Assembly (NCBI GenBank): GCA_050015075.1
Contig: JBEKCB010000007.1
Location: 64,001-128,000 of the forward strand
Length of the DNA stretch: 64,000 bases
Reading direction: 5' to 3'
From: Candidatus Brocadiia bacterium
GTDB taxonomy: Bacteria; Planctomycetota; Brocadiia; CAIUPP01
Positions 3,321 to 42,113 of the stretch are shown one piece after another. A program made the position numbers and the translations under genes. Under the pieces are notes generated by a model. The model was not told the DNA's origin. It saw only the letters and a program-made list of their open reading frames with translations, and did no database searches. The stretch's first letter is position 1; each line of letters starts with the position of its first letter.

Positions 3321-4370
3321 CTACTCGAACCGGAAGTTTTCGCTCCTGATAAGCTCGCAGCAGGCATTTGCCGCATTCGCGTCAAAAAGCGTGCCGCAGC
3401 CCTTGGTCACTTGTTCAATCACAAGCTCAATCGTCATAGCCGGACGATAGGGACGAGGAGAGGACATTGCCTCGACCACGTCGGCCACGGCCAGAACCTG
3501 CGCTTCGAGGATGATCTGGCTCCCCTTGAGTCCATGAGGGTAGCCGGAGCCGTTGAGCCGTTCATGGTGCTGCAGCGTCGCGTCTGCAACAGGCCAGAAG
3601 AAGTCAATCTTTCGCAAAATGTCATAACCGACCTGCGGGTGCGTCTTGATGATGCCGAACTCGCATTCGCTGAGCTTCCCCGGCTTGGAAAGAATTTCGG
3701 CGGGCACGGCGATCTTCCCTATATCGTGCAGGAACCCGGTAATCTCGATGCCTCGCTCCTGCGTCTCGCTGATGCCCAACCGTCGAGCGATTGCCGCAGC
3801 CAGGCGTGCGACGCGCCGTTCGTGCCCCGCCGTGAAGGGGTCGCGGATTTCAATTGCCGACGATATGGCTTCGACACTTCCGTCCATCACGCGCTCAAGA
3901 CGACTCTCGCGCTCCTGCAGCGCCGAGGTTCGGTCAATGATCAGGTCCTCCATCCTTTCCCGGTAGCGCAGGTTTTCAGCTTCGAGTCTCGCCTTTTCGT
4001 CATTCAACGTCCTGATTTTGCAGGCGTTGCCTACAGAGCGCAGGACGGCCTCTTTGGTACAGGGTTTGAACAGGTAGTCCACGGCCCCATCCCGGAGCGA
4101 TGCCGCCGCCGTCTCGGCCGTCGGTTCACCGGTCATCATGACCACCAGCGTGCGCGGCGTGGCCACCTTGATCTTTGCGAGGAGTGCGACACCATTCAGG
4201 CCGGGGAGAATGATATCCGAAAGAATGACATCGAATTCCTTTGCGCGGAACAGCGTTTCCGCCGCATCGGCGTTCTCGGCCGTATCCACTTCGTACCCGG
4301 CGGCGCCGAGGAACGTGCTGAACGTCCTGCGTATCGCCTTCTCGTCGTCTACAACAAGCACTTTTGCCAT
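3321..4370 (-). CDS. REC + HD-GYP c-di-GMP phosphodiesterase
   Basis: N-terminal receiver; RDPFTAGH, HDIGK, HHERLNGSGYP and ADVVEAM..RPYR motifs intact. Confidence 0.92.
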   Translation of the reverse strand: MAKVLVVDDEKAIRRTFSTFLGAAGYEVDTAENADAAETLFRAKEFDVILSDIILPGLNGVALLAKIKVATPRTLVVMMTGEPTAETAAASLRDGAVDYLFKPCTKEAVLRSVGNACKIRTLNDEKARLEAENLRYRERMEDLIIDRTSALQERESRLERVMDGSVEAISSAIEIRDPFTAGHERRVARLAAAIARRLGISETQERGIEITGFLHDIGKIAVPAEILSKPGKLSECEFGIIKTHPQVGYDILRKIDFFWPVADATLQHHERLNGSGYPHGLKGSQIILEAQVLAVADVVEAMSSPRPYRPAMTIELVIEQVTKGCGTLFDANAANACCELIRSENFRFE

Positions 4371-4443
4371 GACATGGTCTCCATTGCCTTTTCGTCACTT
4401 GCCGGGTGGCTCAACGCTCATCCGGGTCGCCTCGGGGCATCCA

Positions 4444-5706
4444 TCACGTTCTTCGCACGACCAGAATCGTCTGGTCGTCTGTTTGCGGTTGTCCCGTGCT
4501 GAAATACGACACGGCCTGGGCCACCGCGCTGACCAGCGCATCCGGTTGCCCGTGGTGTGTACGAAGTACCTCTTCCAAACGGGCAGCGCCGAAGAACTCC
4601 CCGTTGCCATCCACGGCATCCGTGATGCCGTCGGTGTACAAGACCAGACTATCACCGCTCTCCAAAGTCAGGTCGGAACCGTCATATTCGCAGTTTTCAT
4701 CCACGCCGAGCGGCAGTCCATTCTTAACCGCGACCGGACTCAGCGTGCCTCTTTTTTCGCAGATCAGGTATGGCGGCGAGTGGCCGGCGCCGTAGATGGA
4801 CGCCGTGGAGCGGTCCATGTTGATCACGACCATCAAAGCCGTGGCGAAGGTGCGGTCGCACCATTCCCTCGCGAGGAAGCGGTTGACATAGGGCAGCAGC
4901 CCTTCGGCGTCGTTTCGCAGGGAGGCGACCGCGCGGAAGTAGCTCATGACGCGCGCCATGTACAATGCGGCGGCAATGCCCTTGCCGCACACGTCTCCGA
5001 GGAGCACAACTTGCATGTTGCCGATCAAGGGAAGGACATCATAGAAATCGCCTGCCACCTTGCGGGCGGAATGACAGTACGCCGCGAACTGTAAGTTTCC
5101 TCCCGCGGGAAAGGCCTTCGGGAGGAAGGCCTGCTGGATGTCCTGCGCCAAATCGAGCTCGAAGTCTATGCGTTTCTTTTCCTCCTCCACTTCGCGCAAT
5201 TCCGCTTTTTCCAGAGCAATCACCAGGAAGTTCGCGACCGTGCTCAGCAGCACCTGGTCCGATTCTTTGAAGACCGCGCCGTCGCGCTTGTTGTTCACGT
5301 TCAGCACGCCGATCACCCGGTCCCGGAAGAGCAGGGGAACACTCAATAGAGAGCGCGTACTATAGTGGGCAGCGCTTTGTCGTTTGAAAAGCGGGTGCGT
5401 GGCGACGTCCTTGACCAGCAGGGGACGGCCATGCAGAGCGACCCAGCCGGCAATGCCTTCGCCCATTCTAATCCGCGCGGCCTTGACGACGTCCGGGGCA
5501 ATGCCGTGGGCGGCGCGGATGCGCAGCGTCTTGCCGCCCGGCTCGATCAACATCAACGAGCATCGGTTGACCTCGAGCATGCGCCCGACCCGGCGCACGA
5601 GTTCGTTCAGGACTCTTTCTGAATCCTTCTGGGACGCGACGATGTCGCTGATTTCCTTAAAGATCGCCTGCACGAAAGACTGACCTTGATCCAACGACGC
5701 TATCAT
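4444..5706 (-). CDS. GAF + PP2C/SpoIIE (RsbU-like) serine phosphatase
   Basis: GAF (GEGIAGWVA...SLLSVPL...GVLNVNNK), then GDFYD, GDVCGKG, YTDGITDA, DDQT; start set at the ATG after an AAGGAG RBS. Confidence 0.9.
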   Translation of the reverse strand: MIASLDQGQSFVQAIFKEISDIVASQKDSERVLNELVRRVGRMLEVNRCSLMLIEPGGKTLRIRAAHGIAPDVVKAARIRMGEGIAGWVALHGRPLLVKDVATHPLFKRQSAAHYSTRSLLSVPLLFRDRVIGVLNVNNKRDGAVFKESDQVLLSTVANFLVIALEKAELREVEEEKKRIDFELDLAQDIQQAFLPKAFPAGGNLQFAAYCHSARKVAGDFYDVLPLIGNMQVVLLGDVCGKGIAAALYMARVMSYFRAVASLRNDAEGLLPYVNRFLAREWCDRTFATALMVVINMDRSTASIYGAGHSPPYLICEKRGTLSPVAVKNGLPLGVDENCEYDGSDLTLESGDSLVLYTDGITDAVDGNGEFFGAARLEEVLRTHHGQPDALVSAVAQAVSYFSTGQPQTDDQTILVVRRT

Positions 5707-5847
5707 GACACGTCTCCTTAGCCTTGTTGCAGCATGTCCAGCCCAAAAGGGCCGGCCATCGTCGAGCGACGGGTTTCCCCGCCGACGACTGCCCTCGCTC
5801 CGTCCGTAGCCACCATGTTGCACTTCCCGAATGTAAGCGTCTATCAA

Positions 5848-7284
5848 TCAATTCCGAGGCTGCTGCTTCTGATCCTCGGCGAAAGTGGTCGGGTTGCGCG
5901 CGTAAACGCGGGCGACGTTCATCTCCACGATGCCGTTCCTGACGAGGTTGGCCAGGGAGTGGTCGAGCAGGTACATGCCGGACTTGCTGCCCGACTCCTG
6001 ACACGTCTGGATCTGGTCCATGTGCCCCTGCCGGATGAGATTGCTCACCGCCGGCGTAACGATCAGCACTTCGGTCGCCAGCACACGCCCCTTCAGGTCG
6101 CGGCGCGGCAGCAGGACCTGTCCGATGACGCCCTGCAGGACCGATGCCAACTGCCTGCGCACTTGCTCCTGCTGCCCGCCCGGATAGGCGTCCACGATGC
6201 GATTGATGCATTCAATGGTATTGGTCGTGTGAAGGGTGGTCAGCACCAGGTGGCCCGACTCCGCCGCCGTGATGGCCATCGAAGTCGAGTCCAGATCGCG
6301 AATCTCGCCCACGAGGATCACGTTGGGGTCCTGCCGCAACACGTGCCGGAGCGCGCTGGCAAAGGAAGGCGTATCCACCCCCACTTCCCGCTGCTTGACA
6401 ATGCTGCCCGAGCCGGCGGAGGCGTAAATGTACTCGATGGGGTCCTCAATGCTGATGATCATACACTGGCGCTGACGACGGATCAGATCCACGATGGAGG
6501 CGAGGGTCGTGCTCTTGCCGGATCCCGCCGGACCGCTGACGATCACCAGCCCCTTCTGCAGCTTGGCGAGGTCCTGCACGACTGCGGGCAGTCCAAGCTC
6601 GTCCCACGGTGGAATGGAGATGGATATCACGCGGAAGGCCGCCTCGACGTTCCCCATACCGATGTTCACGTTGACTCGGAATCGTGTGCCTTCAGGAAGG
6701 GTGTATGAGAAGTCCATATCCTGGTGCTGCTGAAAACCCTGGCTTTGCTCCTCGCTCATCATGCCCATCAGGATGCGCTCGAGCACGGGGGCCTCGAGGA
6801 CTTGGGTGTCGCCCGGCACAAGGTTGCCGTTAATGCGGAACATCGGAGGCCGGCCGGCTGTCAAGTGTACGTCCGAAGCTCCCCGCTGCACCGCCTCCCG
6901 CAAGATCTGGTTCATCCTGCCGGATTCCGCGTACTCTTCCATTGCATGGCGGTCGTCCGGATCCATTTTGTCAATCGCGATCCCGTGAAGAAACAAGGTA
7001 CCGCCCGCGACTTCCGCTAGCCGCACAACGCGTCCCTGCGCCCGCACCGGCGCGCGCACCAGCCCCGTGATGAACAGTTGCATGTCCACGCGCGACCCGA
7101 CCTGCAGCGGCTTCTGGCCCTCGAACGCGATGCCATTCGCGCTGACATCCACCGCCGTTGCCGTCCCCGCCAGCGGCTTGAGATCCTCGGTTTGGTACTT
7201 GACCATGAAACGGGCGCGCTTGCGCCAACTTTTCCGTTTGGATAAGAGCAGATCATTCTCGTGGACTAGACTTGAACGCGCCAT
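5848..7284 (-). CDS. pilT: PilZ-PilT fusion: type IV pilus retraction ATPase with N-terminal PilZ domain
   Basis: PilZ RxxxR (RKRARF) and DxSxxG (DVSANG); PilT ASDVHL, GPAGSGKST, LRQDPNVILVGEIRD, TLHT, AVSNLIR; AGGAGG RBS. Confidence 0.88.
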   Translation of the reverse strand: MARSSLVHENDLLLSKRKSWRKRARFMVKYQTEDLKPLAGTATAVDVSANGIAFEGQKPLQVGSRVDMQLFITGLVRAPVRAQGRVVRLAEVAGGTLFLHGIAIDKMDPDDRHAMEEYAESGRMNQILREAVQRGASDVHLTAGRPPMFRINGNLVPGDTQVLEAPVLERILMGMMSEEQSQGFQQHQDMDFSYTLPEGTRFRVNVNIGMGNVEAAFRVISISIPPWDELGLPAVVQDLAKLQKGLVIVSGPAGSGKSTTLASIVDLIRRQRQCMIISIEDPIEYIYASAGSGSIVKQREVGVDTPSFASALRHVLRQDPNVILVGEIRDLDSTSMAITAAESGHLVLTTLHTTNTIECINRIVDAYPGGQQEQVRRQLASVLQGVIGQVLLPRRDLKGRVLATEVLIVTPAVSNLIRQGHMDQIQTCQESGSKSGMYLLDHSLANLVRNGIVEMNVARVYARNPTTFAEDQKQQPRN

Positions 7285-7485: not shown

Positions 7486-9357
7486 TCAAATGGACATCTC
7501 CAGCTCGAACGCGTCTTCCAATGTGGTAATGCCCGCGATGGCCTTGCGCAGCGCGTTCTCGAGCAAGCTGCCGGACGCGTGCTTTCTTTGGTACGCGCGC
7601 AGTTCGGCCTCCGGCGCGCGGCGCGTCACGAGTTCTTTCGCCTCATCATCGAGGTGGAAGTACTCGAAGACGGCGGCGCGCCCGCGATAGCCGGTCCCGG
7701 CGCAGTTGGCGCAGCCGGCGCCGCGCCAGAGCCGTTTCGGAATGTCCTCCTGGAGGAGTTCGTGCATGCGCGCCCGCACCGGGTCGGGCAGGTCGTACTC
7801 TTCCTTGCAATGCGGGCAGATCGAGCGCACGAGCCGTTGCGCGGCCGCCGTGATTAGCGTCGAGGCGATCAGGTACGGTTCGGTGCCCATGTTGACCATG
7901 CGCGTAATGGTGGAGACGGAGTCGTTGGTGTGGATCGTGCTCAAGACGAGATGCCCGGTGAGCGAGGAGCGGATGCCGATCTCGAGCGTTTCGAGGTCGC
8001 GCATCTCGCCGACCATGATGATGTCCGGGTCCTGCCGCAGGATGGACCGCAGCGCGCGCGCGAAGGTCAGCCCGATCTCCGGCCGCGCGTGCACCTGCGT
8101 GACGCCCTCGACCTCGTACTCGATCGGGTCTTCGACGGAGATGACGTTCTTGGTGACGTTCTTGACGTATTGGAGGCTCGCGTAGAGCGTGGTGGTCTTG
8201 CCGCTGCCGGTCGGCCCGGTGACCAGGATCATGCCGCTCTGCCGGGCGAGGATCTTCTGCATATGCGCCAGGAAGGCCGCGTCGGTGATGATCTTGTTCA
8301 GCTCGAGGTTCACTGAGCTCCGGTCGAGGATTCGCAGCACGACCTTTTCGCCGTTGATGGAGGGCAAGGTAGAAACGCGCAGGTCTACGTCGCGCCCCTG
8401 GAACTTTGCGCGCATGCGGCCGTCGAGCGGCAGCCGTTTCTCCGCGATGTCCAGCCGCGAGAGGATCTTGATGCGCGAGATCACGGCGTTCTGCATCCGC
8501 TTGGGCGGCGGGATCGTTCGGCGCAGGCGACCGTCCACGCGCACGCGGACGGAGACCGCTTCGCGGCCGGGTTCGATGTGGATATCGCTGGCGCGCTCGG
8601 CGATGGAGTCTCTGATCAGCGAGTCCACGTATTTCACCACCGGCGCGTCCTCGGCCTCGTTGCGGAGCTGCTCGGCCTCCGCCACGGACTCATCGCTCTC
8701 GAGGCTGATTTCCTCTTCGTTTCCGGTGGTGACCATATCCGAGGCGCTGCGTTGCAGATCGGAACGGATCCCATAGCAGCGCTCGAGCGCTTGGCGGATG
8801 GCGTGTTCGGTCGCGGCCACCGGCTTCACCTCGAAGCCGGTCACGGCGCGGACCACGTCGAGCGCGTAGACGTTGCCCGGGCTGCTCATAGCGACGACGA
8901 GGACGTTGCCCTCAATGCGCAGGGGAATCAGCGAGTAACGGCGCGCAATGCGGTCCGGCACCACTGCAATCGCCGCCGGCTGCGTCTCGGAAGGCTCGGT
9001 CAATTCGGTGAAGCCGACTCCCAGGCGAAGGCTCACCGCATACGCGAGCTGCCCTTCGTTGATCACTCCTTTGTGGAGCAGCCGCATGCCCAATCGGGCG
9101 TAGGCGTCTTCCTTGCTGTCGAGCGCCTGATCAATCTGTACCGTCGTGACATAGCCCAGGTCCACCAGGATTTCGCCGATGCGCCGGCCCGGCGTATTGC
9201 CGTTCGTTTCCGGCTCCGAAGCGCCCGCCGCGCCGGAAGCCGCCGCGCCGGCTGCGTTGTTTTCGGGAATCACGGCGAGCGGGACGGCTTCCCCTGCCGT
9301 TCCCGCCGGGCGGGGCTTGTAGGCCAGCATCTCAGGCCGCGCGGATGAAACAACCAT
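7486..9357 (-). CDS. PilB/GspE/MshE secretion ATPase with N-terminal MshEN c-di-GMP-binding domain
   Basis: Tandem RIGEILVDLGYV...QAL / RLGMRLLHKGVI...LAYA motif; ASDIHIEP, GPTGSGKTT, LRQDPDIIMVGEMRD; CxxC...CxxC Zn site. Confidence 0.9.
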   Translation of the reverse strand: MVVSSARPEMLAYKPRPAGTAGEAVPLAVIPENNAAGAAASGAAGASEPETNGNTPGRRIGEILVDLGYVTTVQIDQALDSKEDAYARLGMRLLHKGVINEGQLAYAVSLRLGVGFTELTEPSETQPAAIAVVPDRIARRYSLIPLRIEGNVLVVAMSSPGNVYALDVVRAVTGFEVKPVAATEHAIRQALERCYGIRSDLQRSASDMVTTGNEEEISLESDESVAEAEQLRNEAEDAPVVKYVDSLIRDSIAERASDIHIEPGREAVSVRVRVDGRLRRTIPPPKRMQNAVISRIKILSRLDIAEKRLPLDGRMRAKFQGRDVDLRVSTLPSINGEKVVLRILDRSSVNLELNKIITDAAFLAHMQKILARQSGMILVTGPTGSGKTTTLYASLQYVKNVTKNVISVEDPIEYEVEGVTQVHARPEIGLTFARALRSILRQDPDIIMVGEMRDLETLEIGIRSSLTGHLVLSTIHTNDSVSTITRMVNMGTEPYLIASTLITAAAQRLVRSICPHCKEEYDLPDPVRARMHELLQEDIPKRLWRGAGCANCAGTGYRGRAAVFEYFHLDDEAKELVTRRAPEAELRAYQRKHASGSLLENALRKAIAGITTLEDAFELEMSI

Positions 9358-9462: not shown

Positions 9463-10365
9463 TCATCTCTTCGGTTCTTTGAGGCGCTCCACAAACACGC
9501 CGGGTTTCTCCCCGCCGCCGACGGCCGTCGCTCCGTATTCCCCGTTTGAAGTCAGGTCGCCCGCGAGCCGCTTGAGCGCCGCGCGGTGAATCTGGCAGAC
9601 GCGGGGAACGGTCACATGGAGGATGGCGCCTATCTCGTGCAGCGCCAGCCGCTCGAAGTAATAGCGCCTGATGACCATCCGCTCGGTCCCGGGCAGGCGA
9701 AGGATGGCTCCGGCGAGCCGGGACTTGCTCTCCTCGAGCGCCGCGCAGTCCGGCGGCTGGAGTGCGGAGTCGCGCCGCTCGTACTGCGGCATCGCATACT
9801 TCCCATCGAGCCCACCCGCCGGCGGCGGGGCGTCCAACGAGAAAAACGCGTGCGCACCGGCGACCTTCAGCCTGGCGAGATCCTGCGCCGCGAGTCCCGC
9901 TCGGCCGCAAATCTCGGCGGACGTCGGCGGCCGGCTGACTTCCTGCTCGAGTTCCGCGCTGATGCGCGCGACGCGTCGCAGCGTCGAACGCACCGAACGC
10001 GGCAGCCAATCGGCGGACCGCAGCAGATCCAGCATAGCTCCGCGGATCCGGATCATAGCGTAAGTGTGAAAGCGTATGTTCCGGCCCGGGTCAAAACGGT
10101 CGGTCGCTTCAATCAGGCCCAGCGTGCCCGCTTCCAGCAAGTCTTCCCGGTCAACGTGAGACGGCAAGTGCGCGGCGACGCAGGACAGGACATGTTTCAC
10201 CAGCGGCAGATGGTCCAGAATCAACTTCTCCCGCACCGCTTGCGAAAAACGCCCGGCATGGCGTCCGCGCTCCACGGCTTCTCCTGCACATGGGCTCGCC
10301 TTCCGGCCGAACGACGCGCGACGAGCCGCCATGCCCGTGACGCGATCCGCCGTGGAAGTTATCAT
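9463..10365 (-). CDS. FliA/WhiG-family (sigma28-like) RNA polymerase sigma factor
   Basis: EDLLEAGTLGLIEA.DRFDP, RIRGAMLDLLRSADWLPRSVR, region 4 EIGAIL.VT..RVCQIH; AAGGAG RBS before ATG 10365. Confidence 0.88.
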   Translation of the reverse strand: MITSTADRVTGMAARRASFGRKASPCAGEAVERGRHAGRFSQAVREKLILDHLPLVKHVLSCVAAHLPSHVDREDLLEAGTLGLIEATDRFDPGRNIRFHTYAMIRIRGAMLDLLRSADWLPRSVRSTLRRVARISAELEQEVSRPPTSAEICGRAGLAAQDLARLKVAGAHAFFSLDAPPPAGGLDGKYAMPQYERRDSALQPPDCAALEESKSRLAGAILRLPGTERMVIRRYYFERLALHEIGAILHVTVPRVCQIHRAALKRLAGDLTSNGEYGATAVGGGEKPGVFVERLKEPKR

Positions 10366-10409: not shown

Positions 10410-10829
10410 TCATCCGTCGCGCGCACCGGCGCTCACCGCCCGCACCCCGCTTAACCCGCCGCCGAGAAAGAAAGCGCACAAGAGCGACGCGTTATCACTC
10501 TCGACGGTCCAGATTTCCTCGATAATCTCGATCATGTGATCCAGCAGCGTATCCAATTTCGAGCGGTCCGGGCATTTCGGCGGCTTCTTGAAAAGCACAA
10601 CGGCCCTCGCGGCGCGCATTCCCAATTCGATCTCTTCGACCATCTGGAGGAGGTCCTCCTTCTCGTCCCGGAGGTCGTGGAATTGATCCAGGTCCCATCC
10701 TTCGTGGAGCGTGTCGTGCTGTTTCCATGTGAGCCTGCGGACGTGCGTGTAGAGTTGCGCCTCTTCTTTGTAACCGTGCACCAGGGCGTTGATAGCCGCC
10801 GCGACGTCGGTCAGCGTGTCGTTCTTCAC
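10410..10829 (-). CDS. Helical hypothetical protein, FlgN-like
   Basis: GTG start with GAGGAGG RBS; amphipathic helices with an E..LY..L..L...Q...L...D...EKE.LL pattern reminiscent of FlgN. Confidence 0.55.
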   Translation of the reverse strand: MKNDTLTDVAAAINALVHGYKEEAQLYTHVRRLTWKQHDTLHEGWDLDQFHDLRDEKEDLLQMVEEIELGMRAARAVVLFKKPPKCPDRSKLDTLLDHMIEIIEEIWTVESDNASLLCAFFLGGGLSGVRAVSAGARDG

Positions 10830-10939: not shown

Positions 10940-11812
10940 TCAATCCCGGACGCAATCTCTGCCGGCGGACTTGGCGCGATACAGGGCCTCGTCGGCTGCC
11001 TGGAGAAGCGCCCCCGCCGAGTTACGGCCCTCGCTATCCGCGACGCCAAAGCTCACTGTGACCTCCAATGTCTTGTCGCGAACTGTCAAGTGTCCGGAGC
11101 GGATGCTCATCCGCAGCCGCTCGGCGAAGGCCATGGCGCCCTGAAGAGAGATTTCCGGCGCCACGACGACGAACTCCTCGCCGCCGAAGCGAACAGGGGT
11201 ATCCGATTGGCGGCAGCGCGCGGCCAGCAGGCGGGCCACCTGGCGCAGGACATCGTCGCCTGCCGCATGGCCAAACTGGTCGTTGACCCTTTTGAAATGA
11301 TCAATGTCCGCCATAATGACCGACAGATGCTCACCATACCGCACATGTCTGGTCCACTCGCGCTGAAGGCATTCGTCCAGGGCCCGGCGGTTGAACAACT
11401 CGGTCAGGGGATCCATCAAGGCGTGTTTCCGGAGCAGGTCCTGGAGACGCTTGGTCCGCAAGGCCGCCCGGACGCGCGCGCGCAACTCGAATGCGTCGAA
11501 GGGCTTGGTGACGAAGTCCACGCCTCCCAGATCCAGTCCCTTGACTTTATCGTCGGCGCCGTCCGACCCGGACAGGAAGATCACCGGAATCGAAGAGGTG
11601 AGCGCCTCGCTCTTCAGTCGCCGGCAGACCTCGAAGCCGCTCATGCCGGGCATGTCCACGTCCAGCAGGACCAGGTCCGGGATATCGCGGCTGGCCGCCT
11701 CAAGCCCATCTTTGCCGCCGCCGGCGCACAGAATCTCGTGGCCTTCATGGGCCAGCCGGGCCTTTGCCACAGCCAGCGCGTCGGGGCTATCGTCTATAAT
11801 GAGTATCTTCAT
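10940..11812 (-). CDS. REC + GGDEF diguanylate cyclase
   Basis: Receiver, [20 protein letters not shown], RxxD I-site (RQSD), GGEEF; ATGA overlap with the upstream kinase. Confidence 0.93.
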
Positions 11813-32334: not shown

Positions 32335-32350
32335 AGCAATTGATGTGCCG
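32335..32350 (-). promoter_or_regulatory. sigma54 (-24/-12) promoter of the gvpA operon
   Basis: Minus strand CGGCACATCAATTGCT = GG-N10-GC consensus, ~90 bp upstream of gvpA; an enhancer-binding protein is encoded in the cluster. Confidence 0.85.
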
Positions 32351-32612
32351 TGGACCACAATACTTTTGGAATACGAAGATCGGCTCGCGGTAAGGCCGTT
32401 GGAGAGTTAGGCGCGAGGAAAGCGAGGCTTCGGTGTGTCGCCGCTATGGAATGGGTTCCCTGCTCTGGAAATGCCTCCACACTCCTGGCGCCACGTCTTG
32501 CAGATCCTCGCAGGATTTCTGAAATGCTGTGCTTGGTCTTCCATTCTCGCGCGAAGAAACTGCGTGATGTTGCGTCTGTTGGGAGGCCCCGCGATCAAGG
32601 GCGTTGTTCCGC

Positions 32613-34213: not shown

Positions 34214-36302
34214 TCACGGGCCAGTCCTTTTCCGCCGTATCGCCGTGCTCCGTGTCGATGGCCTGGCGGACGGCTTCGAGGGAGGCGCGGCGGCACACGC
34301 CCTGAATCTCCGCGCCGCTGAACCCTTCGGTCTCGGCCGCCAGTTCACTCGCGGACACGTCGCCTGCGATGGGCTTGCCGTGCAGGCCGATCTCAAATAT
34401 CTGCCGGCGTCCGTCTTCATCGGGCGGTGGAATATTGAGCAATATGTCGAACCGGCCGGGACGCAGGAGCGCGGGGTCCAGCAGGTCCGGCCGATTCGTT
34501 GCGGCCAGGACGAGCACTCCCTCCAATTCCTCCACGCCGTCCAACTCCGTGAGGAACTGGCTGATGACGCGTTCAGTGACCTGCGAATCCGACCCCTTGG
34601 ATCCGCGGGTCGGAACGAGGGCGTCAATTTCGTCGAAGAACAGAATACAGGAAGCCGCCTGCTTGGCTTTACGGAAAACGTCGCGGACCGCCCTTTCCGA
34701 TTCCCCAACGTACATGGAAAGGAGCGCCGGTCCTTTCACGGAGATGAAGTTCACCTGGCTCTCATTGGCCACGGCCTTCGCCAGCAGCGTTTTGCCGCAG
34801 CCCGGAGGACCGGACAGGAGGATGCCCTTGGGCGGGTTGACGGAGGCGCGCGCGAAGAGGTCCGGGTGCTTCAAAGGCCACTCGACGGACTCGATCAACT
34901 GTTTCTTCACGTCCTCCAGGCCGCCCACGTCGGCCCAGCGGACATCGGGGATCTCGACGAAGACCTCGCGTATGGCGGAAGGCTCGACCTCTCGAAGGGC
35001 GTCTGTGAAGTCGGACATGTGGACCTCGAGCTTCATCAGCGCGTCGTACGGAATGTTCGCTGCCGCAAAGTCAATCTCGGGCATGATGCGGCGCAGGCAG
35101 ATCATGGCCGCCTCGCGGCAGAGGGATTGAAGGTCTGCGCCGACGAAGCCGTGCGTGATCCCCGCCAGTTGGCCCACGTCAACGTCCTGGGCGAGAGGCA
35201 TTCCGCGGCTGTGAATTTCGAGTATTTCCTTCCGGCCGTTGCGGTCGGGAATCGGCAGGGATATCTCGCGGTCGAATCGCCCGGGCCGCCGCAAGGCGGG
35301 GTCCAGCGCGTCGGGAATGTTCGTGGCGGCGATGACCATCACGTGCTCCCGCTGGGCCAGGCCGTCCATAAGGGCCAGGAGCTGAGCGACGACGCGCTTC
35401 TCCACGTCGCCGACCACCTTCTCCCGTTTGGGCGCGATGGCGTCAATCTCATCAATGAAGATGATGCTCGGCGCCTGCCGGGTCGCCTCCTCGAAAATCT
35501 TGCGCAGATTGGCCTCGCTCTCCCCGTAGAACTTGTGGATGATCTCGGGGCCGTTGACCAGGAAAAAGTTGGCATCCGTCTCGTGAACGACGGCGCGCGC
35601 AATGAGGGTTTTGCCGCAGCCGGGCGGCCCGTGCAGGAGCACGCCTTTGGGCGCGCCGATGCCCAGCCGCTCGAAGACCTCAGGGTATCGCAGCGGCAGT
35701 TCGATAATTTCCCGGATCCGGAGGACCTCGCGTTTCAAGCCTCCGATGTCTTCGTAGGATACCGTGTGCGCCTTTTCCTTGCCCGGGGCCCGCTTCACCA
35801 CCTCCAGCGTGGTCGCCGAGTTGATCACGACCGGTCCGGACGGAACCGTGGAGACGACCTTGAAGTCGGCGGACCGCGTGCCGAAGAGCGTGGCGCGGAT
35901 GCGGTCTTCCTCGACCACCGGTATGCCGTCGAGGAGGCGGCCGATGTATTCCAGGTCCCGGTCGCGCGGAGTGATCGTGATGGGCGATAACTCTACGCTC
36001 GTGGCCGGCTTGGCGACGATTTTGCGGACCTCCACAAGCTGATCCAGGCCGATCCCCGCGTTCTCCCGGGTCACGCCGTCCACCTGAATCCGCGAGGCTC
36101 CGCGATCTTCGCGATACGCCGGCATCGCCTTGGCGACCGTCTTCCGCTTGCCGGCAACCTCAACGATGTCGCCGACCTTCAGTTGGAGTGTCTCCATGTC
36201 CGAAGGGTCGAAGCGGGCCAGCGCGCGGCCGACGTCTTTCCCCAGGGCTTCCGAGACTCGTAGTTTGAGAGCGCCGTTGCCTCTGCCGTCCATGTGCGTC
36301 AT
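34149..36302 (-). CDS. CDC48/p97/VAT-family double-ring AAA+ ATPase
   Basis: N domain (DVGRALARFD), two AAA modules GPPGCGKTL, YEDIGGL, ALRRPGRFDRE, WADVGGLEDVK. Confidence 0.95.
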   Translation of the reverse strand: MTHMDGRGNGALKLRVSEALGKDVGRALARFDPSDMETLQLKVGDIVEVAGKRKTVAKAMPAYREDRGASRIQVDGVTRENAGIGLDQLVEVRKIVAKPATSVELSPITITPRDRDLEYIGRLLDGIPVVEEDRIRATLFGTRSADFKVVSTVPSGPVVINSATTLEVVKRAPGKEKAHTVSYEDIGGLKREVLRIREIIELPLRYPEVFERLGIGAPKGVLLHGPPGCGKTLIARAVVHETDANFFLVNGPEIIHKFYGESEANLRKIFEEATRQAPSIIFIDEIDAIAPKREKVVGDVEKRVVAQLLALMDGLAQREHVMVIAATNIPDALDPALRRPGRFDREISLPIPDRNGRKEILEIHSRGMPLAQDVDVGQLAGITHGFVGADLQSLCREAAMICLRRIMPEIDFAAANIPYDALMKLEVHMSDFTDALREVEPSAIREVFVEIPDVRWADVGGLEDVKKQLIESVEWPLKHPDLFARASVNPPKGILLSGPPGCGKTLLAKAVANESQVNFISVKGPALLSMYVGESERAVRDVFRKAKQAASCILFFDEIDALVPTRGSKGSDSQVTERVISQFLTELDGVEELEGVLVLAATNRPDLLDPALLRPGRFDILLNIPPPDEDGRRQIFEIGLHGKPIAGDVSASELAAETEGFSGAEIQGVCRRASLEAVRQAIDTEHGDTAEKDWPVSVTREHISHALEEARANHPSA

Positions 36303-36808
36303 CGTTTGGGAGCGTCTTTCATGAATTTGACTTCAAGAATGCCGTTACGGCACGTGTGGCTCATGTTCGCCGGCAGAAAAGCCGACGGCAGAAGCACCTC
36401 CTTGCGATATTTCTGGTCCCCTTTCTCCGCGGCGATGGTCAGGATGTCGTCCCGCAGTTCAAGCTGGACGTCGCCGGATCCCATCCCCGGCATTTCGACC
36501 AGGACGAGGACATGATCCGCCTCGTCGAACAGGTCTACCAGGGGTTCACGCACGGGGTGGACGACGGCTTTGCCGGTCTTCTCGTCCTTCCGAAGATTGC
36601 CGAAACGTTCGACTTTGATTCCTTCATTGCCGATTCCGACGCGAATTGAATACCCGACAACGCCGCGGGTTTGTCCGGTCGCGGGGTCGCGGATGTCCTT
36701 AGTCTCGTGAAGTTCCTTTCCCGATTCCGCCAACTCAGAAAGTTTTTCGAGGATTGTGCCCAGTCTGTCCACGATTCCGCTGGAGCCCATGAGGTCATTC
36801 TCCTCCAA
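36299..36808 (-). CDS. Hsp20/alpha-crystallin protein (GvpH-like)
   Basis: REPLVDLFDE, VEMPG, YRKEVLLP, NGILEV (archaeal-type sHsp pattern). Confidence 0.88.
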   Translation of the reverse strand: MEENDLMGSSGIVDRLGTILEKLSELAESGKELHETKDIRDPATGQTRGVVGYSIRVGIGNEGIKVERFGNLRKDEKTGKAVVHPVREPLVDLFDEADHVLVLVEMPGMGSGDVQLELRDDILTIAAEKGDQKYRKEVLLPSAFLPANMSHTCRNGILEVKFMKDAPKR

Positions 36809-36816
36809 GATTTGTT

Positions 36817-37896
36817 TTACATCGTTTGCCGTGTCGCATTGACATCCTCCACTCCAGCAAATGAAATGCCATAGCTCTTGATTTTCCCGTGCAGGGTCTT
36901 GTAATCCACTTTCAACAGACGCGCCGCCCTGGCTTTGTTTCCTCGCGTCTGCCTCAGGACCTGAATGAGAACACTCCGCTCAACGTTAGCGACAGCATGG
37001 TGGACGACTTCCTTGAGAGAGAGACTGCCGTCAAACTCCGCGCCACTATCGGGCTGAGCAAGGTTCGTCACGGAACTACCGTCCGTCAGGTGCAGATGTT
37101 CCGGAAGAATCTCCTTCTCCGCCACGAGCACCGCGGATCGGATGGCGTTGCGTAATTCCCGGACATTCCCAGGCCAGGAGTACACGAGGAGTATCTGCAA
37201 AGCGGGGCGCGACAGCGTGATGGTTTTGTTCATTTCTTCGTTGGCGATGCGAAGGAAACGGTTTGCGAGATACTCGATGTCCTCCTTGCGTTTGCGCAAC
37301 GGCGGGATCACGATGTTGAACTCGTTCAAGCGGTGATAAAGGTCGCGCCGGAATTTCTCCGCGTGCACCAGCGCAAGCAGGTCATCATTGGTGGCCACAA
37401 TGAGGCGGGGATTAACTGCAACCGGCTGCGTTCCACCCACGCGGAAGACTTGTTGTTCCTGCAATGCACGAAGCAATTTCGGCTGCAGATCAAGCGGGAG
37501 ATTTGATATCTCATCGAGAAACAGCGTGCCCCCTGTGGCAATTTCAAACTTTCCCAACTTGACTCGGTCTGCGCCCGTGAACGCTCCCTTCTCGTGGCCG
37601 AACAATTCCGACTCGAGCAGCGTGGGGGAAATTGAGCCGCAGTCCATGGGAATGAAAGGGCCTGTGTCGTAAGGGGGAGAACGATGGAGCGCGTTGGCAA
37701 TGACCTCTTTGCCGGTGCCGGTTTCACCGCAAATGACCACCGTTAGCGACGTAGATACAACGAGCTTCACCTGCCCACAGATGCGGGATACGTGCGTGCT
37801 CGGCCCCATCATATGGTGCAAAAAGGAATCGGCGTCCACTTCCAAGCCAGCCAGCGTGAAGTGCTCAGTATCAGTCGAGCGCATATTTGTCAACAT
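36817..37896 (-). CDS. sigma54 enhancer-binding protein (AAA+-Fis HTH) lacking a receiver domain
   Basis: GETGTGKE, ESELFGHEKGAFTGA, WPGNVREL, GNKARAARLL; only ~30 aa precede the AAA domain. Confidence 0.93.
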   Translation of the reverse strand: MLTNMRSTDTEHFTLAGLEVDADSFLHHMMGPSTHVSRICGQVKLVVSTSLTVVICGETGTGKEVIANALHRSPPYDTGPFIPMDCGSISPTLLESELFGHEKGAFTGADRVKLGKFEIATGGTLFLDEISNLPLDLQPKLLRALQEQQVFRVGGTQPVAVNPRLIVATNDDLLALVHAEKFRRDLYHRLNEFNIVIPPLRKRKEDIEYLANRFLRIANEEMNKTITLSRPALQILLVYSWPGNVRELRNAIRSAVLVAEKEILPEHLHLTDGSSVTNLAQPDSGAEFDGSLSLKEVVHHAVANVERSVLIQVLRQTRGNKARAARLLKVDYKTLHGKIKSYGISFAGVEDVNATRQTM

Positions 37897-37897
37897 A

Positions 37898-38539
37898 TTA
37901 ACAGGGCGCTAAAAAAACCTTTTTGGACCACACAGAGGCAGTCTCTGCAGATAGTTGTGTAACCCGGATGTCGTCCGGAAGACGGCCGTTGAGCGAATGA
38001 AGCATTCCCAGGAAGATGAGGCCTGTTTCACCCTGTTTCAGAGTCTGGCCGATCCGTTCTGCGATGTAATGGTCGCGCATGTCGAGGATGCGTCTATTGC
38101 GTTCCACGCATTCAGCCGACTTTCCGTTCCGGGCGGAAGCGCCCGGAGCCAGAAGCTGCCGGGCCAGTTCATATTCCTGGATGAGCAACTCCGGAGACTC
38201 GGTGCCGGTTAATTGGGCGCCGCGTTCCATGAGCTTCAGCAGGAGCTGATGATTGAAGCTTCCGGACTTGGCTATCGTGTGGACGATCTCCACTTCACGG
38301 CCGCAGTTCGGCAAGCCGTCCTGATAAAGCCGCACTCGCTCCCAGGCCAGGCGGAGGTTCCCGATCACTTCCTGAACTTTGGTCCAGAATTCGCGGATAT
38401 CTTTGACATGCCGCTCCCATTTGGCCTGGCCCATGCGTTTTACATAGGCCTGCCGAACCAGTTTGCTCATCTTTCCGAAGTCGGCTTCGGTGTGAACCAC
38501 GGGTACCCAGATTAGTTTTCTCGTCAAATGATCGTTCAT
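37898..38539 (-). CDS. Gas-vesicle-cluster-associated hypothetical protein
   Basis: Clean ORF with motifs PVVHT..D.G, YQDGLP.CG.E, GTESPELL, RD.YIA.RI, FLG.LH; first gene of the regulator operon. Confidence 0.8.
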   Translation of the reverse strand: MNDHLTRKLIWVPVVHTEADFGKMSKLVRQAYVKRMGQAKWERHVKDIREFWTKVQEVIGNLRLAWERVRLYQDGLPNCGREVEIVHTIAKSGSFNHQLLLKLMERGAQLTGTESPELLIQEYELARQLLAPGASARNGKSAECVERNRRILDMRDHYIAERIGQTLKQGETGLIFLGMLHSLNGRLPDDIRVTQLSAETASVWSKKVFLAPC

Positions 38540-39065
38540 GTTCGCTCGAGTCCACTTCCGTCGGTTCGTACTGCGTGAAGCATCGCAACGTTTCCGGCAC
38601 GCCGATTTCTATGGGACATGATACCTGCTTCTGGAACTTGTTCTATGGCGCAGGCTCCATACCTCGAAAACCTCTCGCCTTCCGTGTGCACGCCTGTTGC
38701 TCCACGGACAGGACGGTAAACGCCCTCCCGACGCGAAAGCGCAAAAGTCGTGCCGCAGAGCGAATGAATCCATGACTTATCCTTACCGCCATAGACATCA
38801 GCCAGTTGAGGCGATCTTTCTCCAAGTCTCCTTAGGAAGGAGAAGGTTTGCATCGAACGCTAACAACTCATGGAGTGGAAGATATAAGTAAGGCAGGGTC
38901 TGGTGAGCGTCAATGGTTGTGGGGATAAGTTCCCTTGGAAGGTTATCCCTATGTCGCTTGCCCAATACTATTATGCGACAGCGCGGGGGAAATAGATATA
39001 GCCTGAAGAGGTTAGATCATGCGGATTTTAATCCTACCCCCCAAGACGGCCGCAAGGATGCATTG

Positions 39066-39719
39066 CTATAGTTTGGCAATTCCTGCTTTGATGGCGTAAC
39101 GGACGAGGTCGGTCTGTTTGTGGATGCCCAGTTTTGCCGCAAGATGGTTCCGGTGGGCGTGGACAGTGTTGTCGGACACCTCCAGCGCGGCGGCGACTTC
39201 TTTGTTGCTGTGGCCTTCGGCTATGAGTTGCAGCACTTTCCTTTCCTGCCCGGTGAGCGCCGAGGCGGGGCTGGCCTTCCGCTTCCCCTTCTTCCCTTTG
39301 AGAACGTCTTCAACGACGAAATGGGCGATCTTTGGACTGAGATAGTAGCGTCCTGCGTGGACCTCCCTCACGGCCTTGATCACGTCCGGGACGGCCATTT
39401 CCTTCGTCAAGTATCCCCGCGCGCCGGCCGCCAACGCCTCCTCCACCATGGGTTTCGTATCGTGAAGGCTCAGGATGATGACCTTTGTGGCCGGAGACCT
39501 TTTGACCAGTTCTTTAGCAGTCTCGATTCCGTTCATATTGGGCATGACGATATCGAGGATGGCGACGTCGGCCGGCCGGGTCTTGACTATCTCCAGGACT
39601 TCCTGGCCGTCCGAAGCCTCCCCGACGACCGCGATATCCTTTCCGCCGCTTTCAATCTTCAATCGCAGCCCCTCGCGAACCACCGGGTGATCATCGGCAA
39701 TGACAACGCGAATGCTCAT
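39066..39719 (-). CDS. NarL/LuxR-family response regulator
   Basis: ADDHPVVREG receiver; LT..E..VL.LIAEG.SNKEVA..L.VS..TV..H HTH. Confidence 0.95.
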   Translation of the reverse strand: MSIRVVIADDHPVVREGLRLKIESGGKDIAVVGEASDGQEVLEIVKTRPADVAILDIVMPNMNGIETAKELVKRSPATKVIILSLHDTKPMVEEALAAGARGYLTKEMAVPDVIKAVREVHAGRYYLSPKIAHFVVEDVLKGKKGKRKASPASALTGQERKVLQLIAEGHSNKEVAAALEVSDNTVHAHRNHLAAKLGIHKQTDLVRYAIKAGIAKL

Positions 39720-39974
39720 GGGCTGCTCCCTCCGCGGTGATCGCCTCCGCATTGTGCCTGGCAAGCTGTAGCGCATTGATCCCATTTTACATTGGGAGTG
39801 CGCTCACTCAAGGAAACTTTGTCGGTAGTCAAGAATACCTGCCAATATTGCCTCCCGCGAGCATTCCCGGTGGAATTCGTGGGCGCGTGATACGTCAATT
39901 GCCGCGCGTCTCGATCCTCCGAGCCGAGTCGGGAAATAGATCCACGCAGCTCTCTCGCGTTATGCCAATCTTGC

Positions 39975-40115
39975 TCGACATATCGCATCTTTGGATCAAC
40001 TCGAAGACGCTCGGCGTCGTTCAGATCCTCATAACCAGTACACCGCTCATAGACAGACTGCCGCAGCAGGGGAATCATCCCGTGTCGTATCTTGCTTCCA
40101 GGTCGAGTATCCTTG
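39975..40115 (-). mobile_element. IS1380-family transposase relic
   Basis: DTRPGSKIRHGMIPLLRQSVYERCTGYEDLNDAERLRVDPKMR matches the IS1380 N-terminal LLRQ..Y....GYED.NDA..LR.DP motif; the rest is absent. Confidence 0.75.
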
Positions 40116-40121
40116 GGATAC

Positions 40122-42113
40122 TCATCCGCCATCGTCGTCACTCCCTGCGCTTTCTCCATCTCCCGATGCGCCGTCAGCGCCGCAACTGAGCGGCAGGCTC
40201 ACGCGCAGCGTGGTTCCTTTCCCCCGCTTGGAATCAATCAGGCAGGCGCCCCCGGCGTAAGTCACCATCTCCTGTATCACACGAAGGCCCATGTGCGATG
40301 TTTGCCGCACCTGGTTTTCGGACGGATCGAATCCCGTTCCGTTGTCACGCACAGTCAGTCTGACTTCCTTTTTCAACGCCCTGAGGCTCACGTCCACTCG
40401 TTTCGCCTCACCGTGCGTGATGGCGTTCGTCAGCGCCTCCTGCGCAATGCGAAACAGAATTGTGGCAGTGTCTCCGTCCACTCGCCTTCGTCCCAGGGTC
40501 TCTCTGAAATGAATTCGGGTCTGCCCGCACTCTGTAATCTGAGAGAAGTGCTGTCGCAAGGCGGCGGGCAGCCCGAGGACATCGAGTTCGGGCGGCCGAA
40601 GTTGAATGGCCAACCCCCTCAGGTGGCCCACCGACTCGTCAAACAGCTCCCGGATCCGCTTCGTCCACTTGAGCGCTTCCTCACTTTTCCCGCAGCGGAG
40701 CCCCTCGTCAATCGCGTCAAGGTGGGCTGCAATCCCCACCGCCAGTGAACCCACATCGTGGTGCAAGGCGGACGACACCTGCCTCCTCTCATTCTCTCGC
40801 ACGACCAGAAGTTCCCGGGCCAGCCTCCGGGTTTTCTCCTCCGCCCGCTTGCGCTCGGTGATATCCAGAAACGCGCCGACCGCGCCGCGCACCTTGCCTT
40901 CCGCGTCGAACAAGGGAACGGCGTCACCCACGGTGTCCACCGAGGTGCCGTCCTCGAACGCCAGCGTCATCTCAAAGTTCTTCACCGCCTTCCCGGTGGC
41001 CGCGGCGAGCTGAACGGGCAGTTCTTTGGGCCGCAACTCGCGCCCGTTCTTCAGGGCGCGAAACGTCCTGGGTCGCTCGCCGGGCGGCGCGCTCTTGGAA
41101 GTGTTCGCATCGTGGGGGAGCCGTAACACGCGCAGGGCGGCGTCGGAGCTGGTCATGCGCCGGCAGGCGGGGTCGTGTGCGATGAAGATGAGGGCGGGCG
41201 TCGCTGCCAGCAACGCCGCGAGTTCATCCGCGCGGGCGCGAGCTGAAGCCTCGTTCTCGCGCAACTCCTCTTCCATCCGTACTCGTTCGGTGACGTCGCG
41301 GATCACCATGCTGGTACGCAGTTCCCCATGCCATCCGGTGAAGTGCGCCGAAGAGACTTCACCGGGAAATTTCGTTCCGTCCTTGCGCATCAGGGTCAGT
41401 TCGCCACGGAACCGGCCCGTGCGAGCGCGTTCTTCCAAGGCCGTCGCCATGCGCGGGTCCAAGCCGTCAACGACGCCGCTCTGCCCAACCTGCATCAACT
41501 CCTGCTCGGATCGGCCAAACATGCGGCAGGCCGCCTCGTTGGCGGCCAGAATGCGGCCATCCTGCGCCGTCAGCAGCACCGCGTCCATGCTGGAGGTCAC
41601 GAACGAACGGTAGCATCCCTCGCTCTCCCGCAGCGCCCCCTCAGCCCGCTTGCGATCGGTGATATCCTGGAGGACGCCCGAAAGAATGTTGAACTCGCCG
41701 GACGCGTCGCGGACCGGCATGCCCCGCGTGTGGATATATCTCAGTTCCCCATCGGGCCGCCGGATGCGAAACTCGGCATCGAGGGCCTGCCCGCTTGCAA
41801 GTGCCGCCTCGATCTCCTGGTTGAGGCGCACCCGATCCTCGGGATGAACCAGCGCGAGAAAGTCATCGAGCGGGGGCGCCGCGCTCCCAGCCGGCAGACC
41901 GAACACATCGCAGACACCCGCCGACCAGAATGTCTTGCCGGTCCTGAAGTCGCGTTCCCAATGGCCGAGATGGGCCATTTTCTCCGCGGCGCGATAGCTG
42001 GCTTCACTCGCCCACAGCTCTTCTTCCACTCGCTTCCGTTCGGTGATGTTCTGCCCTTGCGCGATGGCGGATGCCGGGGCTTTTCCGTCCGGAGAAGGAT
42101 TGGATTCTGTCAT
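40122..42113 (-). CDS. Cytoplasmic 3xPAS histidine kinase (HisKA_3, NarX/UhpB type)
   Basis: ERRQVSSALHHDVG, LRPPELDVLGL, FRIAQEALTN, DNGTGFD; likely partner of the downstream NarL. Confidence 0.92.
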   Translation of the reverse strand: MTESNPSPDGKAPASAIAQGQNITERKRVEEELWASEASYRAAEKMAHLGHWERDFRTGKTFWSAGVCDVFGLPAGSAAPPLDDFLALVHPEDRVRLNQEIEAALASGQALDAEFRIRRPDGELRYIHTRGMPVRDASGEFNILSGVLQDITDRKRAEGALRESEGCYRSFVTSSMDAVLLTAQDGRILAANEAACRMFGRSEQELMQVGQSGVVDGLDPRMATALEERARTGRFRGELTLMRKDGTKFPGEVSSAHFTGWHGELRTSMVIRDVTERVRMEEELRENEASARARADELAALLAATPALIFIAHDPACRRMTSSDAALRVLRLPHDANTSKSAPPGERPRTFRALKNGRELRPKELPVQLAAATGKAVKNFEMTLAFEDGTSVDTVGDAVPLFDAEGKVRGAVGAFLDITERKRAEEKTRRLARELLVVRENERRQVSSALHHDVGSLAVGIAAHLDAIDEGLRCGKSEEALKWTKRIRELFDESVGHLRGLAIQLRPPELDVLGLPAALRQHFSQITECGQTRIHFRETLGRRRVDGDTATILFRIAQEALTNAITHGEAKRVDVSLRALKKEVRLTVRDNGTGFDPSENQVRQTSHMGLRVIQEMVTYAGGACLIDSKRGKGTTLRVSLPLSCGADGASGDGESAGSDDDGG

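Follow-up and report, generated by a model that had tools for sequence, protein, structure and literature searches.

The stretch of DNA considered here, hereafter the window, is a 64,000-nucleotide (nt) segment (G000:C7:64001-128000) of a planctomycete metagenome-assembled genome of 4.64 megabases (Mb) in 66 contigs (G000; completeness 93.6%, contamination 3.8%). On its minus strand, 33 intact genes and 3 gene fragments run in a single orientation from 42173 to 3321, and by gene content the region appears to consist of two adjoining units: a gas-vesicle (gvp) cluster at 23.2-42.2 kilobases (kb), followed by a signalling cassette at 3.3-22.0 kb that is predicted to encode enzymes of cyclic di-GMP (c-di-GMP) turnover and two pilus-type ATPases. 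What is new at this locus is its junction, where a copy of the leader of the gvp regulatory operon, 83% identical to the original, lies directly before the first kinase gene of the cassette. A preliminary description of the region had counted about 35 co-oriented minus-strand genes with named domains, many of them translationally coupled, and this agrees with the Pfam and NCBIfam matches; only short gaps separate the genes, and start codons overlap stop codons at several places, including an ATGA at 21962-21965.

The host is a non-anammox bacterium from the planctomycete class to which the anammox bacteria belong as well; hydrazine-synthase alpha domains were found in 3 genomes of the class, all from family f4, and in neither G000 nor its congener G001, a same-genus genome that is 91% complete. 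A weak pointer to Acidobacteriota, obtained from the Atlas for one protein family, was discounted. Genes and domains were called with Pfam and NCBIfam profile models against their cut-offs, and active-site and binding motifs were located by regular expression. The part of the window at 20000-26500 occurs in 24 listed sequencing runs, all of them peat, wetland and soil metagenomes with no RNA runs among them. The G+C content of the region (0.56-0.66) is near that of its flanks. Synteny with G001 is lost near 2.8 kb and near 42.4 kb, and a transfer RNA (tRNA) gene, tRNA-Ser(TGA) at 42411-42497 (minus strand; ARAGORN, Rfam), marks the right end of this non-syntenic, variable region and is 96-99% conserved in G001-G003. 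No integrase is among the Pfam matches of the region. At gathering thresholds Rfam returned two tRNAs only over the whole window, and a c-di-GMP riboswitch was not found at E <= 1 in 2700-42600. Scans for sigma-70 promoters and terminators gave counts at or near shuffle levels and were uninformative.

Duplicated Regulatory Leader at the Junction

The stretch at 22-23 kb between the two units is not empty, as it holds a fragment of a NarL-type regulator gene and a truncated copy of unk213, the first gene of the gvp regulatory operon. Both belong to a direct repeat in which copy B (21970-23062, about 1.1 kb) matches copy A (38287-39533) at 83-84% identity by self-BLAST (alignment A1). In copy A these are the NarL gene's 3' part, the intergenic DNA and unk213 up to codon 84, and copy B comprises the corresponding NarL fragment (22706-22966), a sigma-54-like element and the truncated unk213 copy (21962-22222). 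The NarL part of copy B has lost about 150 nt internally and the whole intergenic region has been kept. The 15-nt sigma-54-like element within it (pattern match CGGCACGACTTTTGC) is identical in both copies, at 38741-38755 in copy A and 22420-22434 in copy B, and the first 84 codons of unk213 share 90% DNA identity between copies. The stop codon of the truncated unk213 overlaps the ATG of the first cassette kinase in the ATGA mentioned above. As copy B and this overlap immediately precede the kinase gene, a copy of the upstream region of the gvp regulatory operon heads the cassette, an arrangement that suggests promoter capture.

The preliminary description had allowed that the junction near 22-23 kb could be an assembly chimera, which now seems very improbable, as the two blocks are continuous in independent peat metagenome contigs. 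A chimera would have formed via the 1.1-kb repeat, whose copies have long identical runs in common, and no single listed contig bridges 22017-22415. However, contigs of runs X4 (20952-22017 and 22846-29787) and X5 (20953-22017 and 22846-31013), two runs not flagged as possible sources, match the window with 0 differences and cover both outer edges of copy B, including copy-B-specific bases and the unique flanks. A strain-variant contig of X7 joins 22415 to 26611, reaching into the gvp genes, and all 30 bins of 14000-32000 are covered in each of four peat runs. Furthermore, the copies are only 83% identical, and an exchange between direct repeats would cut the gvp cluster out rather than create the present order. 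One X5 contig also has a joint of 32000 to 21970, with 48 letters on the shorter side, which is left uninterpreted.

The c-di-GMP and Pilus-ATPase Cassette

The second unit appears to be a lineage-specific signalling cassette, separate from the gvp cluster, with all of its genes on the minus strand. Its first gene encodes a hybrid histidine kinase with a GAF domain, four PAS domains and a receiver (17961-21965; Pfam), for which a 77% identical orthologue is present on L116, a related metagenome contig with 82-90% DNA identity to the cassette. This is followed by two response regulator (RR)-HD-GYP genes (16802-17944 and 15742-16785; Pfam HD_5), a tandem duplicate of 80% DNA identity in which one member has GYP and the other GYI, and by unk302 (14815-15690), a stand-alone GAF-like sensor-domain protein that has no Pfam match and whose structural neighbours in the Atlas are the sensor parts of histidine kinases. 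A PAS hybrid kinase with receiver and Hpt domains (11809-14793; Pfam) and an RR-GGDEF gene (10940-11812; GGDEF 5.2e-46) come next. Beyond these lie a gene for a 139-amino-acid FlgN-like protein (10410-10829; FlgN match below cut-off), a FliA/WhiG-family sigma factor (9463-10365; TIGR02479, 196.8 against a cut-off of 189.6), a PilB/GspE-type ATPase with an N-terminal MshEN domain (7486-9357; T2SSE 1.7e-130, MshEN 3.3e-18, and NF053729, a model of the MshE-related c-di-GMP motif, at its cut-off with 38.7 against 38) and a PilT/PilU-family ATPase with an N-terminal PilZ domain (5848-7284; TIGR01420 404.8 against 319.1, PilZ 37.8 against 22.5). The cassette ends with a SpoIIE-type GAF-PP2C phosphatase (4444-5847; Pfam) and a third RR-HD-GYP gene (3321-4370; Pfam), each with an 89% identical orthologue on L116.

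The c-di-GMP-related genes named in the preliminary description were upheld by profile and motif searches alike (GGEEF, HD-GYP, PilZ and MshEN). The RR-GGDEF protein has the GGEEF active-site motif with an RxxD inhibitory site five residues upstream, and by motif it classes as a putative active diguanylate cyclase. HDIGK and GYP are found in two of the HD-GYP proteins, and the third has GYI. In the PilZ-PilT fusion, the PilZ part contains RKSWR (RxxxR) followed by DVSANG ((D/N)xSxxG), and it is thereby a candidate c-di-GMP receptor by motif. The ATPase part contains GPAGSGKS and AVSNLIR, and its family-model score lies above the cut-off; a Walker A motif together with an AIRNLIRE-like motif marks a PilT/PilU retraction ATPase, to which family the protein is assigned. 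The MshEN domain has two tandem 24-residue motifs with a 5-residue spacer that fit the relaxed motif of PMC5013675, the final Gln being changed to Lys in one and Arg in the other. The ATPase that bears it scores below the NCBIfam equivalog cut-offs for both GspE (559.7 against 630.25) and PilB (549.5 against 675.65), and no pilin, PilC (T2SSF) or secretin gene was found anywhere in the region by Pfam and NCBIfam scans; with these scores and no such gene adjoining, its assignment as the dedicated ATPase of a pilus system was rejected.

The kinases of the region have been said to lack obvious transmembrane segments, and a Kyte-Doolittle scan of the five kinases agrees, with zero hydrophobic segments. 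Self-comparison showed that PAS modules are common to both hybrid kinases of the cassette. When the sigma factor and the FlgN-like protein were modelled as a complex (alignments A2 and A3), the score was 0.01, a value that says nothing for or against binding. The FlgN-like gene stands after the RR-GGDEF gene and before the sigma factor gene, and two paralogues elsewhere in the genome, L133 (G000:C13, 3873-4334) and L134 (G000:C4, 3859-4491), each lie directly after a gene for an RR-sigma-54 activator. The family of unk302 consists of unnamed GAF-like sensor domains of about 240 residues that stand alone in the window, G001 and G002 and are fused into proteins of 530-1140 residues in anammox bacteria; the C-terminus of unk302 is a hydrophobic segment.

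The Gas-Vesicle Cluster

The first unit appears to be of a known kind, a GvrA-type gas-vesicle cluster, and combines a sigma-54 activator, a helper set of Hsp20, Cdc48 and ArsA, the structural and assembly gvp genes, and embedded two-component genes. Core gvpA, gvpN, gvpF/L, gvpG, gvpJ/A-like and gvpK are all present above the Pfam and NCBIfam cut-offs, in the order unk213, sigma-54 activator, Hsp20, Cdc48, two GvpF/L, gvpA, unk124, gvpN, unk117, gvpF/L, gvpG, ArsA, gvpJ, gvpK and gvpA/J-like, all on the minus strand. The regulatory operon begins with unk213 (37898-38539; no Pfam or NCBIfam match) and continues with the sigma-54 activator (36817-37896; Sigma54_activat 2.1e-61, HTH_8), an AAA+ protein in GvrA-like position that has no receiver domain. 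Next are an Hsp20/GvpH-like gene (36299-36808; Pfam), a CDC48-family double AAA+ gene (34149-36302; Pfam, TIGR01243 915.6 against a cut-off of 802.65) and two GvpF/L genes (33317-34213 and 32613-33362; PF06386, 2.2e-52 and 8.5e-40).

The gene for gvpA (32026-32244; NF006874, 136 bits against a cut-off of 100) is preceded by a sigma-54-like element at 32336-32350, which has one mismatch to the -24/-12 pattern and starts 106 nt upstream of the ATG. The structural and assembly block from unk124 to the gvpA/J-like gene (25772-31892), the order of which is kept in relatives, includes gvpN (30375-31481; TIGR02640, 339 against 266.8), a third GvpF/L (29173-29991; Pfam) and, by Pfam and NCBIfam, gvpG (28922-29182), ArsA/Get3 (26991-28925), gvpJ-like (26461-26784), gvpK (26095-26457) and gvpA/J-like (25772-26080). 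Neither Pfam nor Rfam placed a PilZ, MshEN or riboswitch receptor inside the cluster.

Two-component genes are found at both ends of the cluster, again on the minus strand. At the upstream end, a PAS-PAS histidine kinase (40122-42173; PAS_9, PAS_3, HATPase_c), which is cytoplasmic as it has no hydrophobic segment, is the presumed partner of a NarL/GerE-type response regulator (39066-39785; Response_reg and GerE). The two had been described as a pair, and both genes are present, with a DDE transposase fragment in between (39716-40159; PF13701, E 1.9e-10, 63 residues out of the 435 positions in the profile). At its 3' end the cluster has a PAS histidine kinase (24458-25762), a single-domain response regulator (24003-24461) and an RR-PAS gene (23183-24013), all assigned by Pfam, and this set at 23183-25762 has no counterpart after gvp in G001.

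The same gvp gene set, mostly in the same order, occurs in G001 and in the class clusters retrieved, often with kinase or regulator genes embedded, and Hsp20, ArsA/Get3 and Cdc48 genes lie inside most of the class clusters retrieved. G001 is without the ArsA gene between gvpG and gvpJ. From 25772 to 38539 the cluster is 71-72% identical in DNA to its counterpart in G001 (G001:C97, G001:C20) and, for most genes, 48-81% identical at the protein level; on the right-hand side of the tRNA gene, DNA identity to G001 is 90-95%. The lower identity of the gvp genes relative to that of the flank suggests that the cluster evolves fast or was separately acquired.

In at least 7 other gvp clusters of the class, as in the window, unk213 is the first gene of the gvp regulatory operon, and His, Asp, Cys, Glu and Arg residues are invariant in its product (alignment A4). 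A predicted model (predicted local distance difference test, pLDDT, 81) is closest to ChaN (2g5g, Z 9.3) and HopBA1 (5t09, Z 8.4), then to a Pasteurella toxin domain, EreC and RRSP, which points to a ChaN/EreA/TIKI-like fold; this lead comes from a wider aligner, as Foldseek against the PDB gave nothing at E <= 0.001.

Paralogues and Relatives of the Cassette

The related contig L116 is collinear with the window from 19450 to 3303, the comparison spanning the cassette from 19450 down, and nothing in it matches the window beyond 3303. The genes on L116 are, in order, hybrid kinase, RR-HD-GYP, unk302, PAS-GGDEF, FlgN-like, sigma factor, PilB, PilZ-PilT, GAF-PP2C and RR-HD-GYP; thus it has a single RR-HD-GYP for the tandem pair of the window, and one PAS-GGDEF protein replaces the second hybrid kinase and the RR-GGDEF. 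Because the two are collinear over this length, the cassette can be regarded as a unit.

Several of its products have close paralogues elsewhere in the same genome. A PilB with 86% identity to that of the cassette is encoded on contig C21, in a cluster made up of a pilin-like gene, PilM, secretin, PilC, PilB and PilT, and the C21 PilB is in turn the 92% identical orthologue of the single such PilB of G001; in total the genome contains 22 T2SSE matches. The cassette sigma factor is 66% identical to a sigma factor on contig C9 that adjoins a GAF-PP2C gene. The flagellar FliA is a third gene, located beside FlhA on C16 and 39% identical to the cassette sigma factor, and an assignment of the latter as flagellar FliA was therefore rejected.

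Fusions of PilZ to PilT are common in public protein sets, where many proteins of about 460-480 residues combine PF07238 with PF00437, and the closest relatives of the cassette protein are 95, 90, 73 and 70% identical, followed by others at about 55%. When the species genomes were searched with the fusion, all 80 of the loci listed aligned to the ATPase part only (query residues 84-473); these are generic PilT genes and are of no use as evidence of context. Likewise, in the 39 relatives searched in addition to G001, no PilT match covered the PilZ part.

Elsewhere in the window, kdpA, kdpB and kdpC with kdpD and kdpE (48125-56792) are 94-95% identical in DNA to G001 and are ordinary. Short dispersed repeats of about 40-90 nt, at about 43940-44150 and 56002-56063, are present in dozens of copies on many G001 contigs and on both strands.

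Survey of Other Gas-Vesicle Clusters

GvpK was detected in 25 of the 132 class genomes, and a sample of 401 genomes from the whole phylum yielded it in 20. The flanks retrieved for the gvp clusters of the 24 other gvp-bearing class genomes were searched with domain-only queries, with almost no flank available in 5 of the 24. Nine of them (G020, G042, G022, G081, G068, G069, G071, G079 and G083), which belong to six genera, have a GGDEF or HD-GYP gene no more than 15 kb from gvp, and in six (G042, G022, G081, G071, G079 and G083) the distance is within 4 kb. By the same test G000 contains 22 GGDEF/HD-GYP domains in its 4.64 Mb, and five genomes hold 7-23 HD-GYP each; by rough arithmetic, chance alone would put such a domain within 15 kb at about 13% of loci and within 4 kb at about 4%. 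After gvp, G020 has two hybrid kinase genes, the first followed by genes for an RR-sigma-54 activator and a sigma factor, the second by an RR-HD-GYP gene. A sigma factor near gvp was seen in 1 of the 24 genomes. Outside the class, an HD-GYP gene directly follows gvp in 1 of 13 gvp-bearing planctomycete genomes (G243). The preliminary description had named linkage of gvp to c-di-GMP and pilus genes in relatives as a test, and the c-di-GMP part holds for these nine genomes; the pilus part does not, as shown by the T2SSE and PilZ counts given below. Judged by gene neighbourhoods, this recurrent association of gvp with c-di-GMP enzymes in the class appears to be the more general lead.

In a tree of HD-GYP domains, the tandem pair of the window groups with gvp-adjacent genes of G020, G079 and G081 (support 86/90). 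The tree does not support a single conserved gvp-linked HD-GYP lineage, as this clade is mixed and only moderately supported and the gvp-adjacent label is not significantly clustered.

The only other neighbourhood seen to combine gvp with T2SSE is that of two large-genome planctomycetes outside the class (L143-L145; G338:C39 and G294:C75), in which a PP2C gene and a PilB-like ATPase gene lie on the strand opposite to gvpK, 5 to 12.4 kb beyond it.

Proposed Mechanism and Alternative Readings

From these observations a circuit may be proposed in which the cytoplasmic PAS/GAF hybrid kinases would phosphorylate the receivers of one RR-GGDEF cyclase and three RR-HD-GYP phosphodiesterases, and these enzymes would together set the level of c-di-GMP. 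This level would be read by the candidate receptors MshEN-PilB and PilZ-PilT. Since the ATPase parts of both have paralogues in type IV pilus clusters and the cassette has no platform genes, they would most probably serve as alternative motors for a pilus machine whose genes lie elsewhere, such as those of the complete C21 cluster. The sigma-28-family factor, the FlgN-like protein and the GAF-PP2C phosphatase would add a transcriptional output, and the promoter copy would tie the circuit to gas-vesicle-inducing conditions. As a whole, a float-or-attach switch is plausible from the gene content.

The most likely reading, though with something less than an even chance, is that copy B lets the cassette respond to the signals of the gas-vesicle regulon, so that buoyant cells would also express c-di-GMP-tuned pilus control, the two units presumably being transcribed under the same conditions. 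A competing explanation, to which we give a slightly smaller chance, is that the two units became neighbours by rearrangement only, in a signalling-rich variable region, and that the repeat is a recombination scar rather than a promoter. Several observations weigh against coupling, and many of them favour this second explanation. After its last gvp gene, G001 has a convergent AcrB gene and housekeeping genes but no cassette; its homologues of the cassette genes are dispersed over four or more other contigs (C83, C97, C106 and C128), and none of its 10 PilT matches covers the PilZ part (residues 1-179). Where G000 and G001 were compared, synteny breaks off every few kilobases, and adjacency therefore changes easily; the transposase fragment and the tRNA gene at the edge of the region, and the lower identity of gvp to G001 (71-72%) than of the flanks (90-95%), fit such rearrangement as well. 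Within the retrieved flanks, T2SSE, PilZ and PP2C were found near gvp in 0 of the 24 class genomes, and T2SSE (PilB-like) with PP2C outside the class in only 2 of 13 genomes, both of one genus. Together with the arrangement in G001, these counts do not support the earlier suggestion that the region is one module, in the sense of a conserved unit. The truncated leader differs from unk213 by 13 non-synonymous and 7 synonymous codons and therefore looks like a decaying fragment with no visible purifying selection. The sigma-54-like element was not found (at most one mismatch) upstream of unk213 orthologues in 8 other genomes, the element upstream of gvpA is present in only 3 of 11 genomes, and the sigma-54 pattern is not enriched across the window (54 matches against 66 expected from shuffles). 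Neither MshEN motif keeps its terminal Gln. Finally, two G081 paralogues without gvp beside them lie within the HD-GYP clade of the window, further gvp-adjacent HD-GYPs are placed in other parts of the tree, and the gvp-adjacent label was as little dispersed in 307 of 500 shuffles as in the tree itself. Against mere adjacency stand the repeat, which puts an intact intergenic region and a start codon exactly before the kinase gene, with the ATGA overlap, the shared orientation and short gaps of all 33 genes, and the presence of c-di-GMP enzymes beside gvp in 9 of the 24 genomes, several times the chance estimate.

The same neighbourhoods also admit an explanation in which c-di-GMP chiefly controls the gas vesicles themselves, their expression or assembly, via an unrecognised receptor, with PilB and PilZ-PilT as a late lineage-specific addition. 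This is an unlikely account, although the six genomes with HD-GYP or GGDEF within 4 kb of gvp, the G020 run of kinase, sigma factor, kinase and RR-HD-GYP after gvp, the HD-GYP gene directly after gvp in G243 and the grouping of the tandem HD-GYPs with gvp-adjacent genes of G020, G079 and G081 all speak for it. Against it stand the absence of PilZ, MshEN and riboswitch receptors from the gvp cluster in the Pfam and Rfam searches, the mixed composition of the HD-GYP clade and the placement of other gvp-adjacent members elsewhere, and the 15 of 24 class genomes (five of them with almost no flank) in which no such neighbour was seen; moreover, gas-vesicle literature searches of titles and abstracts found no report of c-di-GMP control. 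The three readings overlap. In its widest form, the coupling of the cassette to the gas-vesicle regulon would mean that c-di-GMP-turnover genes were recruited repeatedly by the gvp clusters of the class, and that here a promoter duplication wired a complete c-di-GMP circuit, with sensors, cyclase, three phosphodiesterases, a sigma-28-family factor and spare c-di-GMP-gated type IV pilus motors, to buoyancy as a recent switch between floating and holding on; in this extended form we consider it doubtful.

Gas vesicles are the one common means of bacterial movement for which the literature searched reports no link to c-di-GMP, and c-di-GMP usually governs the choice between moving and attaching. 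If the pairing of gvp with HD-GYP or GGDEF genes is functional, buoyancy would join this general scheme, and the promoter-copy junction would be a datable example of a regulon gaining a new output. A possible bearing on anammox bacteria also exists, as relatives carry the same gvp and HD-GYP arrangement; in the excerpts available of PMC8851195, a full gas-vesicle gene set is given for 'Ca. Jettenia' and work on c-di-GMP and anammox aggregation is cited. If the adjacency has no function, the region would simply be a signalling-rich variable region.

Comparison with Known Systems

The components of the region appear to belong to known families, and their arrangement appears to be confined to one lineage. 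Literature searches of titles and abstracts found no described locus that combines gas vesicles with c-di-GMP, a diguanylate cyclase or type IV pili, and in the excerpts of PMC3899966, PMC2405808 and PMC8851195 gvp genes and c-di-GMP genes are reported separately. The gvp cluster is most readily compared with the Serratia locus, where, according to the excerpted account (PMC4982088), a single operon contains gvrA (a sigma-54 activator), gvpH, GvpF genes and gvrB/gvrC, and a sigma-54 site belongs to gvpA1. Flotation in Serratia is also reported to be co-regulated with another form of motility. As in that account, the window has an NtrC-type sigma-54 activator followed by Hsp20-like, GvpF-family and two-component genes, then gvpA, gvpN, gvpF, gvpG, gvpK and further GvpA-like genes; a candidate sigma-54-like element lies upstream of gvpA. 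Unlike the Serratia locus as there described, however, the activator of the window has no receiver, a ChaN-like gene heads the operon, Cdc48 and ArsA are present, and kinase and regulator genes stand at the cluster ends; the c-di-GMP and pilus-ATPase cassette that follows has no counterpart in that description.

The cassette PilB resembles Vibrio cholerae MshE, as presented in the excerpt of PMC5013675, in its N-terminal tandem 24-residue motifs with a 5-residue spacer before a PilB/GspE ATPase with a tetracysteine motif. It differs from the MshE type there described in that its motifs end in Lys and Arg instead of Gln, and in that it is an extra paralogue with no adjoining PilC or pilin gene.

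For the sigma factor, a parallel is offered by Rubrobacter, in which a switch, (RsiG)2-(c-di-GMP)2-WhiG, governs type IV pili according to the portion of PMC8325347 consulted. The RsiG motif E(X)3S(X)2R(X)3Q(X)3D was not seen in the FlgN-like protein on reading its sequence, no formal search having been made. The two systems differ in phylum and in the small protein, which is FlgN-like in the window; both have a non-flagellar sigma-28/WhiG factor beside c-di-GMP and pilus genes, directly after a small helical protein. By this analogy, the Rubrobacter RsiG-WhiG system would be the nearest described counterpart to the transcriptional arm of the cassette.

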